A stretch of 55,188 nt of DNA from a virus (Duplodnaviria > Heunggongvirae > Uroviricota > Caudoviricetes), in IMG/VR virus record IMGVR_UViG_2850802633_000006, one strand, 5' to 3'. The first letter of the stretch is position 1, and each line of letters starts with the position of its first letter. Positions 33,001 to 36,000 of the stretch are shown piece after piece. Made by a program: the position numbers.

Positions 33001-36000
33001 GCACCACTGGCAAGTGCTTCAATCTCTGCCGCCACCTGCAAATACCCCATGCAACGGCCAATGCGTTTCATAACTCTGGTGTTTTCGTCTTTCAGGCATC
33101 TGATAGCGAGATTAATAATTTTCAGGCAGTGATGATGCGATGCCCGGACAGGTTTTCCGTTCTCATAAACGACGAACTCACCCTCTTCACAGGAAACCCT
33201 GAAAGGCCGATGGGGTTCCTGGTCTTTATCCGGTGCAGACGCAATAAAATCACTTTTATGCTCTTCCTCTCCGGCACTGTTAACCGTAATGACGTACTCA
33301 GGCCGCAGGTAAGCCGCCTCTTTTTCTGACAATGCGGCCGGTAAAAACTTTTCCTGCAAAAACTTCATAAAAGTCTCGTGAGCGACTTTGTGGCAGTAAT
33401 CGTAAATCGCCGCATAATGCTCATCGCGGCGTTTGTTTTCATCTTCAGAACTCACCAACACCGACAATTTTTTATTAAGCTCAGTGATTTCATTTTCCAG
33501 GTGATTGAATCGCTGATTCATTTCTTCATGCTTCATTATTTACTCTCCCCGTGCAGCCTTACGCTTGTCTTCTCTTATTTTGAAATACAGATTCGTCAGA
33601 TAAGTCAGAAGCCCCAGAAGCAGACTTCCCAGCACACCAATCGCAGCCCACTGTGATGGCCTGACCTGATCCAACCACTGCAAAAACCAGTAGCCGGCAC
33701 TGCCGGCGGAGGTGCCGTAGGCAATGCCCGTTGAAATTTTGTCCATGGATTTCATAGCCTCACCTCCGCAAATAACGGATGGCGTAGTTTTACACTGAGA
33801 AATGAAAGGGATTTGAAAAGAAAAAAACGCAAAAGCGGGCGAAACGATATATACAGTAAGGAAAGCACTCTATCCAACAAACCACCCACAGTTAATCGGA
33901 ATAAAAGCAGAGTGCTTATGAATGATCGCACGCCCGAAGGTTAGTATTTCTGCACAGCAATTTTGCAAAAAAAGGCGATCATTCATAACTTAAACGTCTT
34001 TCAGTCACTCCGGGATTTCCCATCATCGCAGACTGAAAGACTCTGACTGGAGCGGGCAGCGGGAATCGAACCCGCATCATCAGCTTGGAAGGCTGAGGTA
34101 ATAGCCATTATACGATGCCCGCATATGGTGCCGACTACCGGAATCGAACTGGTGACCTACTGATTACAAGTCAGTTGCTCTGCCTGCTGAGCTAAGTCGG
34201 CGCTGGCCCACCACCGAGGACTCGAACCTCGCACCGTCAACTTAGAAGGTTGATGCTCTATCCGGATGAGCTAGTGGTGGTTGGTGGCCCTTGCTGGACT
34301 TGAACCAGCGACCTGGCGATTATGAGTCGCTCGCTCTGACCAACTGAGCTAAAGGGCCGGAGGCAGAATAATAACCATATGTCATCACATCTGCAAACTC
34401 ATCTGACCACCAGCGTGTTTAACGTCCTGTACCGTTTTTCAGGCATAAAAAACCCGCCCGGAGGCGGGTTTAAGCTGTGTGGCGAAGCAACCACTCTTAA
34501 CAGAATATCCCGTTTTTTACGTACGTAAAATATTTTCTAGAAAGTCGCCCCTTACCATCAGGGATGTTCAATATATTTGTCCATTTCTAACCGGACACCC
34601 AACATCATCAACATTCCTTCCACCACCCCCTCGGCTTTTTGTAGCTTCTTTCCTATATAACCATCTGAGCATCCATGCTTCCGCGCCAGCGTCATGAATG
34701 TCATCCCAAACACGTAGTAGTCAACCAGCAAGTCATGTAGATCGTTGTTGTTCCGGTTAAGGCGGGCCATACACCCACATATAACCATCGCGTCATCGTC
34801 ACAGCATTGCGGGCGGGATTTTACTTTTGAAGGGATTAATCCCTTAAAACCGGCAGCAATGGACGACCAGGTCACATCCTCATGATTATTAGCCACCCAC
34901 GCGCCCCAGCGCTCAAGAACCTGCTGAATATCACGCATCACTGTCTTTACCCCTGTCCCATCCACGATGAACAATCAGAACACCATCAACAATGGCGTGC
35001 CCTTTGCCCTCTTTATCTTCAGCATATTTTCTTACCGTGGCGCGATTACAGTTCAGCATTCGTGAAACTTCGGTCATATTACCTCGTGTCTGGATAAGCA
35101 GTTCCGGTATCGTTTGAATTTTGACGCTCATCAAATACTCTCCGGTTCGGTGATTTTTATCCCGGGCTTTCCACCAGGGACATAATGATCGCGCACAAGC
35201 CAGGGCAAAACAAACTCATGGCGCATCAGCGCAGCGCCTCCTGCACCAGTTTTTCAAACTTTCCGACTCTGGTTTCCAGCTCTGCCACACAGTCCACCAG
35301 CTCATCTACTGCTTTCTGTGCGCGATGCTTCGCCTGCATCAGTTCCCGAAGCGCGGGTACCATATCTTTACGGATAGCATCTTTTGTTATGCCCGTTTTT
35401 TCGAGTTGTTCAGCATGACGCAGCATTTCCTGCGCGTGTTTACGCAATTGTTCAGGGGTAAAAGTCATTGTCTGGTTGTTCAAAAGAAACGCTCCATCTT
35501 ACTGCTGTCAGTTCGTTTATTACTGTATCTGCGCGGATTGCCGGGCTTCATGGGAGTGGAAAGCACCCGTGCACTTTCCTGGTCCACAGGCAGAAAATGT
35601 CCGTTATAAAAACGCCGGTAAATCGTTCCCAGAGAACCGTTACGTTGTTTCGTGATATTGATTTCTGCGATGCCCCTGGCCTGCGTATCCGGGTTGTACA
35701 CTTCATCCCTGTAAAGCATCAGAATGATGTCTGCATCCGCCTCTATTTCTCCGGAATTTTTCAGGTCTGAGTTCATGGGACGTTTATTGGGTCTGGACTC
35801 CACACCGCGGGAGAGCTGGCTCAGCGCAATCAACGGAAAACCACCGGATTTTGCCAGGCCTTTAAGCCCCTTTGAGATTTCACCCACGGCAAGGTCATGA
35901 CGCCCCGTGGTTCGGGTTTTTATCAGCCCGAGATAATCAACCACCACCAGCGCCGTTTCCGGATATTTAATCAGGTGGTGTTTCGTTGTTGCGCATATCT

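Follow-up and report, generated by a model that had tools for sequence, protein, structure and literature searches.

Lambdoid phages are known to carry tRNA genes downstream of the late antiterminator gene Q, and the supply of tRNAs for rare codons is the established explanation. In Shiga toxin 2 (Stx2) phages, three tRNA genes lie around stx2a and have been accounted for by this rare-codon logic (PMC7946995); an ileX-like gene near stx2 goes back to Schmidt et al. 1997, as cited in PMC3636060. The phages SfI, Sf6, ST64T, and P21 also have tRNA genes after Q, and an ACA bias of phage relative to S. flexneri has been described (PMC3636060). Here we describe a cluster of four tRNA genes in the IMG/VR virus record IMGVR_UViG_2850802633_000006, a 55 kb stretch of DNA that was analyzed whole and is referred to as the window. 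The cluster is a four-gene tRNA operon in the late region of a lambdoid prophage, and we consider it likely that it serves the translation of phage and cargo genes rich in rare codons. The genes themselves are already in RefSeq annotation. A search of an incomplete literature collection found no publication on this set of four tRNAs or its origin as a mosaic, and none on the conserved promoter or the turnover of anticodons at the second position of the cluster.

Genes were called with ARAGORN and scored with the Rfam tRNA model RF00005 (gathering score 29). The whole window contains four tRNAs, all on the minus strand and running from 34358 to 34048; they are numbered here as slots 1–4.

34282–34358, minus strand: tRNA 1, anticodon CAU, Ile2 type; 77 nt, CCA encoded; 70.5 bits
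34204–34280, minus strand: tRNA 2, Arg UCU (AGA/AGG); 77 nt, C1-G72 pair, phage-specific scaffold; 56.4 bits
34126–34201, minus strand: tRNA 3, Thr UGU (ACA); 76 nt; 69.8 bits
34048–34122, minus strand: tRNA 4, Gly UCC (GGA/GGG); 75 nt; 64.9 bits

The scores lie far above the gathering score, with E-values of 1e-9 to 1e-13, so the four genes are not chance matches. Their order, 5' to 3' on the minus strand, is CAU, Arg, Thr, Gly, with spacers of 1, 2, and 3 nt, and the CCA end is encoded in all four. A first-pass annotation, made from the sequence alone, had placed four tRNAs with these anticodons at the same coordinates, 1–3 nt apart, between Q and the lysis genes. The calls agree on every count, with the Q open reading frame (ORF) on one side and genes for a P21-type holin, lysozyme, and Rz on the other (Pfam). 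We add to that annotation that the cluster is on the minus strand, that the Thr gene is also host-like, and that the Arg gene is not. Across 33700–34600, an Rfam search at permissive settings returned no RNA family besides the four tRNAs; its other hits were terminator and antisense-tRNA noise below threshold.

Identity and origin of the four tRNAs

Each gene was compared with the K-12 tRNA genes of NC_000913.3. The CAU tRNA is 90% identical to ileX (69/77) and 69% identical to metT (54/78). Its acceptor stem (GGCCCUU/AAGGGCC) contains C4-G69 and C5-G68, the pairs needed by E. coli TilS (PMC1635315). It also has A73, U12-A23, C29-G41, A37, and A38, all part of the Ile identity set, and lacks the Met pairs U4-A69/A5-U68 (PMC9976931 Table 1). 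Because the TilS pairs and these Ile elements are present and the Met pairs are absent, we assign it as an Ile2 gene; an identical gene is annotated as tRNA-Ile by NCBI. An elongator or initiator Met tRNA was considered and is ruled out by the acceptor-stem determinants and the overall similarity.

The Arg-UCU tRNA carries A20 (in the D loop), C35, U36, and G73, which is the complete bacterial set of Arg determinants (A20, C35, U/G36, A/G73; PMC9976931). It is 70–73% identical to argU, 83% to the argN gene (UCG) of Stx phages, 60% to argO, and 86% to a Lys(UUU) version found in avian pathogenic E. coli (APEC) O1. The gene appears to be built on the argN scaffold, with UCU in place of UCG, and not on the argO scaffold.

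The two remaining genes are of host type and contain the Thr and Gly identity elements. The Gly-UCC gene is identical to K-12 glyT over its whole length (75/75), and the Thr-UGU gene matches thrU at 74/76 positions (97%), the differences being two U-to-C changes in the D loop. The resemblance of the Gly and Ile genes to glyT and ileX, proposed in the first-pass annotation, is borne out by these comparisons. The host operon thrU-tyrU-glyT-thrT-tufB is the source of slots 3 and 4. Only its UGU and UCC members are found in the prophage, joined by a 3-nt spacer, whereas tyrU, a 116-nt spacer, and thrT are absent, and the flanks of the prophage Thr-Gly pair have no similarity to the host operon outside the mature tRNAs. 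The members taken up are thus only the two that read rare A-ending codons, which argues against neutral carriage. The cluster is thus a mosaic, with two tRNAs of phage lineage and two that were captured selectively from the host.

The first-pass annotation had described the cluster as an extended version of the ileZ-argN-argO trio of Stx2 phages (933W type), a view that holds for half of it. Slot 1 is the same gene as ileZ of Stx2a_F349 (3 differences in 77 columns, 96% identical), and slot 2 has the argN scaffold (83%, C1-G72, same length) with a different anticodon. The two clusters also share their position downstream of Q and a terminator and upstream of late or cargo genes, the same promoter-like hexamers before tRNA 1, and the same rare-codon rationale. 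However, slot 2 reads UCU instead of UCG in the window, argO has no counterpart (60% to slot 2), and Thr-UGU and Gly-UCC follow as a separate host capture. The window also has no downstream toxin gene, and a structured spacer of 292 nt precedes the holin. The Ile2-Lys(UUU)-Thr-Gly clusters of APEC O1, PhiR47_1, phi467, and vB_EcoS-689R5 have the same architecture, spacing, Thr-Gly pair, spacer, and holin, but their slot 2 differs from that of the window at 11/77 positions, including UUU for UCU, C33 for U33, and discriminator U for G. SfI, Sf6, ST64T, and P21, likened to the window by position and tRNA content, have tRNAs after Q in Shigella, Salmonella, and E. coli lambdoid phages, among them Thr-UGU; theirs are one or two genes, Asn-GUU plus Thr-UGU.

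A more distant parallel is phage T4, whose eight tRNA genes (locus L177, 5174–6531) include all four of these anticodons, all read A-ending codons, and are tightly packed. Unlike the prophage, T4 is virulent, and it has four further tRNAs (Ser, Pro, Leu, Gln). Derivation of the cluster from T4 is ruled out by sequence identities of only 66–84% between the corresponding tRNAs; the two anticodon sets therefore arose independently, by convergence.

Codon usage and predicted expression of the cluster

Codon usage was compared among 43 curated prophage ORFs (10,768 codons), two ipaH genes of the window (1,188 codons), and 77 annotated chromosomal genes from K-12 and from the flanks of an enteroinvasive E. 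coli (EIEC) prophage (28,761 codons). In the chromosomal genes, the codons ATA, AGA, ACA, and GGA account for 4.9%, 1.3%, 9.5%, and 9.7% of their amino acids and are the rarest of their families, as expected from the earlier claim that the cluster decodes codons rare in E. coli. The codons most enriched in prophage over chromosomal genes, among all 61, are AGG, AGA, CGG, ACA, ATA, TCA, CGA, GGG, and GGA. The four cognate codons occupy ranks 5 (ATA), 2 (AGA), 4 (ACA), and 9 (GGA; rank-sum P = 1.8e-4), and among the 14 A-ending sense codons they rank 3, 1, 2, and 6, respectively (P = 0.004). Enrichment extends to the wobble partners AGG and GGG. Taken together, ATA, AGA, AGG, ACA, GGA, and GGG account for 6.3% of codons in the phage genes and ipaH and for 2.7% in the host genes. 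Per 1000 codons, ipaH uses AGA 22-fold, AGG 18-fold, ATA 3.7-fold, and ACA 2.8-fold more often than the chromosomal genes. The enrichment in prophage and ipaH genes on which the first-pass annotation had staked its proposal is thus found.

That annotation had attributed the benefit to AT-rich genes, and this part does not stand: the late genes have a GC content of 55% and ipaH 48%. AT-richness as the cause of the codon match is ruled out by the composition of the late genes and by the A-ending codons GTA, CTA, TTA, CAA, and GAA, which are depleted or neutral in phage genes. The match is therefore specific and not compositional.

The DNA on either side of the tRNA genes contains three further elements.

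34368–34397, minus strand: predicted sigma-70-like promoter, TTTGCA/TTGCAG, 17–18 nt spacer, TATTAT (consensus scan)
34445–34471, minus strand: intrinsic terminator hairpin, AAACCCGCC-UCCG-GGCGGGUUU followed by a U run (sequence and RNA fold)
33756–34047, minus strand: non-coding spacer of 292 nt between tRNA-Gly and holin, with three long hairpins and a weak terminator-like element

The -10 element of the predicted promoter ends 9 nt ahead of tRNA 1. Its hexamers are invariant in six loci that lie behind different Q genes and whose upstream regions are otherwise 59% identical. TTGCR-N18-TATTAT was found at a constant distance from the tRNA in 110/133 related loci, which have 39 different 50-nt upstream sequences; most of the remaining loci have TTGAAG or TTGATT plus TATTAT. 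Hexamers and spacing that are kept while the spacer sequence varies are the signature of a working promoter. This pattern suggests that the tRNA operon may be transcribed without Q, and hence in lysogens. The terminator hairpin between Q and the tRNAs, which has a 9-bp stem, was missed by a consensus terminator scan and was clear on RNA folding. It is kept, with a changed loop, in RMDEC332, CE0026a, and PPompW and, judged by its position after Q, is probably the tR' of the late promoter region. The 292-nt spacer has a predicted fold of -73.1 kcal/mol (z = -2.5) and is 96% conserved across four loci. It occurs only in the four phage records that have the Thr-Gly module. The permissive search of 33700–34600 matched it to no Rfam family. 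A possible role for the spacer is to restrict read-through to the lysis genes.

In K-12, Ile2 is encoded by two genes, whereas argU, thrU, and glyT are single genes. The reading we favor, which we hold to be probable, is that the cluster supplies additional rare-codon tRNAs to phage and cargo genes. Transcription would start from the predicted promoter upstream of tRNA 1 and, after induction, RNA polymerase modified by Q would add transcripts that begin at the late promoter and run past the tR' hairpin. Given spacers of 1–3 nt and encoded CCA ends, a cut by RNase P at each 5' end and short exonucleolytic trimming would release four mature tRNAs. TilS would place lysidine on the CAU tRNA, so that AUA is read as Ile, and host enzymes would modify and charge the set; the other three, with U34 anticodons, would read AGA/AGG, ACA, and GGA/GGG. 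The extra copies of four minor tRNAs would then relieve a decoding bottleneck at codons over-used by the phage genes and ipaH. Promoter activity, processing, modification, charging, and the gain in translation are all predicted here from sequence features, and any benefit to ipaH is one that we infer from the codon match.

This reading is favored because of the codon match, the conserved tRNA bodies, and the selective capture from the host operon. The identity of the Gly (100%) and Thr (97%) genes to functional host genes supports it, as does the independent occurrence of the same four anticodons in T4. The cluster would thus be a well-supported example of a known strategy, in which temperate phages carry tRNAs for codons used by the phage and not by the host.

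Several observations weigh against supply of rare-codon tRNAs. The prophage is defective (described below), so that in this strain a gain for phage late-gene translation is moot. In S. flexneri, some of the sister copies are damaged, for example by a 1-nt deletion in the acceptor stem of the Thr gene, which indicates that not every copy is under strict selection. In published work, the codon adaptation of lambdoid phages that carry three tRNAs was neither better nor worse than that of phages without them (PMC4631060). GGA is unchanged in ipaH per 1000 codons, although within glycine codons it makes up 27%, versus 10% in the host. The host reference is a sample and not a whole genome. The decayed prophage, the mutated sister copies (including one in RMDEC332 whose slot 4 has degraded to a "Val-UAC" with a deletion in the acceptor stem), and the missing correlation between tRNA carriage and codon adaptation would also fit neutral passengers, that is, tRNAs that hitchhike in the Q-to-lysis module without a selected function in phage or host. 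We regard this as improbable. The tRNA bodies are kept far better than their flanks: slot 1 is identical in 115/138 loci, and the sequences upstream of it are variable (39 variants). Slot 2 has compensatory changes in its stems, the members kept from the host operon are just those for rare codons, the codon match is significant (P = 1.8e-4), and the anticodon set converges with that of T4.

Related clusters and the second tRNA

Relatives were found in IMG/VR with an exact 26-mer from the slot-1 anticodon arm, and the 120 loci recovered are a sample and not a full census. In GTDB genomes, the same 26-mer also matched chromosomal Ile2 genes (Methylococcus, Obscuribacterales, and others), which were removed by their acceptor-stem sequence. 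A degenerate IUPAC pattern for the slot-2 tRNA gave no match in IMG/VR. Five arrangements other than that of the window were distinguished by NCBI annotation and ARAGORN.

Ile2-Arg(UCG)-Arg(UCU): Stx2 phages
Ile2-Lys(UUU)-Thr-Gly: APEC O1 and several isolated phages
Ile2-Thr(UGU)-Thr-Gly: CE0026a
Ile2-Arg(UCU)-Thr-"Val(UAC)": RMDEC332, slot 4 degraded
Ile2-Lys-Arg: PPompW

These clusters form one family, in which the first gene is constant and the genes behind it vary. Among the 120 IMG/VR matches listed, 57 are of the Stx type, 34 are Ile2 alone, 14 are Lys-type four-tRNA clusters, and 6 are of the window type. A four-tRNA cluster of this family is present in 601/5426 complete E. coli genomes (about 11%). 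The Arg-UCU version is found in about 10 of these 5426 genomes and is multicopy in Shigella. S. flexneri SFBU1023 has three window-type copies and one Lys-type copy (L138, L146, L154, L158), and E. coli ECMA0423 has five ileZ-type loci (L142, L145, L164, L168, L173). Shigella-type genomes have three to five copies of the cluster, in different prophage remnants, and some of these copies stand without phage genes and are flanked by insertion sequences (IS).

The anticodon of slot 2 varies among prophages. The gene was located as follows.

Slot-2 tRNA in relatives: L005 1615–1691; L006 1595–1671; L007 1595–1671; L008 1595–1670
Slot-2 tRNA in the window: 34204–34280

It exists in 38 distinct sequences, in which 96.9% of stem positions are paired and 5/21 pairs have compensatory changes. 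Its anticodon is UCG in 59 loci, UUU in 17, UCU in 15, and UGU in 1. A single anticodon base separates the Lys(UUU) from the Thr(UGU) version, and both have C33 in place of the universal U33. These patterns point to one selected scaffold whose anticodon changes between prophages; the window has the conventional Arg-UCU allele. Saks, Sampson, and Abelson in 1998 reportedly converted a tRNA-Arg(UCU) into a functional tRNA-Thr(UGU) by one mutation, a laboratory result. The slot-2 case resembles such recruitment in that one scaffold is found with UCG, UCU, UUU, and UGU, and differs from it in that the variation is natural and occurs among prophages. Recruitment of tRNAs by anticodon shifts has also been described in eukaryotes (PMC3923123). 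Slot 2 across prophages may thus offer a natural system for the study of tRNA identity switching and, possibly, of evasion of anticodon nucleases.

The second of these prospects touches on a different function for the cluster, in which its tRNAs replace host tRNAs cut by anticodon nucleases, comparable to the tRNA-Lys of T5 against PARIS or the altered anticodon loops of mycobacteriophage tRNAs. Phage tRNAs that resist tRNA-cleaving defenses are documented (PMC11464382, PMC10264068, PMC11555353). The slot-2 scaffold is unlike any host tRNA, with an anticodon stem that differs from that of argU at 3/5 pairs, and the sister clusters with UUU and the unusual C33 correspond to tRNA-Lys, a classic nuclease target. 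In the window, however, the four anticodon loops are identical to those of ileX, argU, thrU, and glyT. The Gly gene is fully identical to glyT and the anticodon arm of the Thr gene to that of its host counterpart, so a nuclease that cuts the host copies would also cut the prophage ones. This computational analysis identified no tRNA-cleaving system with specificity for the four species. We consider counter-defense very unlikely for the window cluster and, as the main explanation here, it is ruled out by the host-equal anticodon loops and the identity of the Gly gene to glyT. Such a role is more plausible for the UUU/C33 sister versions.

The glyT copy in slot 4 of RMDEC332 (L004, 1849–1920) has the anticodon UAC ("Val") and a 3-nt deletion in the 3' strand of the acceptor stem. 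It is probably a decaying gene and not a new valine tRNA.

The prophage and its ipaH genes

The genes around the cluster belong to the late region, with ipaH genes near both ends of the window.

34558–34974, minus strand: late antiterminator Q (Pfam PF06530, E = 5.8e-54; antiterminator Q family in the identical EIEC locus)
33540–33755, minus strand: holin, P21-type class II (Pfam PF04971)
32907–33536, minus strand: ORF of 209 aa in the holin-lysozyme interval (no Pfam match; only PHROG families of unknown function)
32308–32841, minus strand: lysozyme (Pfam PF00959)
31844–32326, minus strand: Rz (Pfam PF03245)
1060–2823, plus strand: ipaH, with leucine-rich repeats and a NEL E3 ligase domain (Pfam NEL E = 7e-77, LRR_TTSS), at the tail-fiber end of the prophage
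53377–55188, minus strand: second ipaH (Pfam NEL E = 2e-75), beside an inverted tail-fiber fragment

Over 601 bp that include the cluster, the window matches a prophage of E. coli CFSAN029787, an EIEC strain, at 100% identity; the NCBI annotation of that prophage lists Q, tRNA-Ile, tRNA-Arg, tRNA-Thr, tRNA-Gly, holin, lysozyme, and lysis protein in this order. The lysis cassette of the window (31844–33755) has the same gene order as in that annotation. The EIEC prophage is inserted in mlrA and has ipaHe beside its tail-fiber genes, at a position equivalent to the window ipaH at 1060–2823. The tail and head genes of the two prophages are 97.5% identical, and the window is the more decayed. Positions 33474–37766 match E. 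coli ECMA0423 at 100% and S. flexneri SFBU1023 at 99.8% identity, which indicates that the window comes from a Shigella-type genome. The segment beside the second ipaH (52577–54159, set against the sequence from 1876 onward) is an inverted match to the EIEC segment that contains ipaHe and a DUF4376 (tail-fiber-assembly) gene; at least two ipaH-bearing phage ends are therefore represented in part in the window.

The prophage is defective. Its portal gene is split into two overlapping ORFs (20883–22476, minus strand). Several IS3-family copies separate Rz from the terminase (24868–31844), one of them with an ALIL frameshift pseudoknot (26287–26403), and the early region is cut by IS1 copies at 38839–39342 and 48000–48503, upstream of the replication genes.

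An intact cluster in a defective prophage, 100% identical to the EIEC and ECMA0423 copies, fits lysogenic conversion: constitutive transcription from its own promoter would provide more tRNAs for AGA, AUA, ACA, and GGA, and the cluster would be kept in Shigella and EIEC mainly for the sake of horizontally acquired virulence genes (ipaH and, by extension, those of the virulence plasmid) and not for phage growth. The conserved, Q-independent predicted promoter is consistent with this, since it predicts expression without induction, and only under that condition could Shigella virulence genes be affected. The multiple copies in SFBU1023 and ECMA0423, some stripped of phage genes and IS-flanked, point in the same direction, as do the strong AGA, AGG, and ATA enrichment of ipaH (22-, 18-, and 3.7-fold the chromosomal rate) and the rarity of the Arg-UCU version among complete E. 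coli genomes, of which the one checked, CFSAN029787, has the ipaHe prophage. However, several Shigella copies are damaged, as neutral decay predicts, and a recent common ancestor may be all that lies behind the high identity to the EIEC copy. Non-invasive E. coli and viable phages commonly carry the same type of cluster in its Lys version, so ipaH is not what the module evolved for. We treat retention for virulence genes as a tentative possibility, below supply of codons to phage and cargo genes. If the tRNAs do raise the output of IpaH and other effectors of the type III secretion system, dead-looking prophage remnants would still add to Shigella fitness. Two further proposals go beyond codon supply. 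In one, slot 2 would be a naturally re-assignable anticodon, whose switches in identity retune the supply of rare-codon tRNAs or allow escape from nucleases that cut tRNA-Lys. In the other, the operon, with its own predicted promoter and several copies in decayed prophages, would have been domesticated in Shigella and EIEC as a booster for ipaH and other AGA/AUA-rich virulence genes. Drawn from sequence comparison, both are speculative, and we think them rather less likely to hold than to fail.

Some features of the surrounding DNA are of separate interest. In APEC O1, a shorter YdfR-family gene takes the position of the 209-aa ORF. A second lambdoid early-region remnant of the window contains an ORF of the QueH (epoxyqueuosine reductase) family, a family of tRNA-modification enzymes (40107–40793, minus strand), and beside it an Rfam match to the sok antitoxin RNA (39874–40049, minus strand). 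Matches to isrK and C4 antisense RNA (47155–47343, plus strand) lie at the start of an ORF with Ash/Rha domains (46996–47952, plus strand). The arrangement resembles an antirepressor control module in the style of P1/P7, set within a lambdoid remnant.

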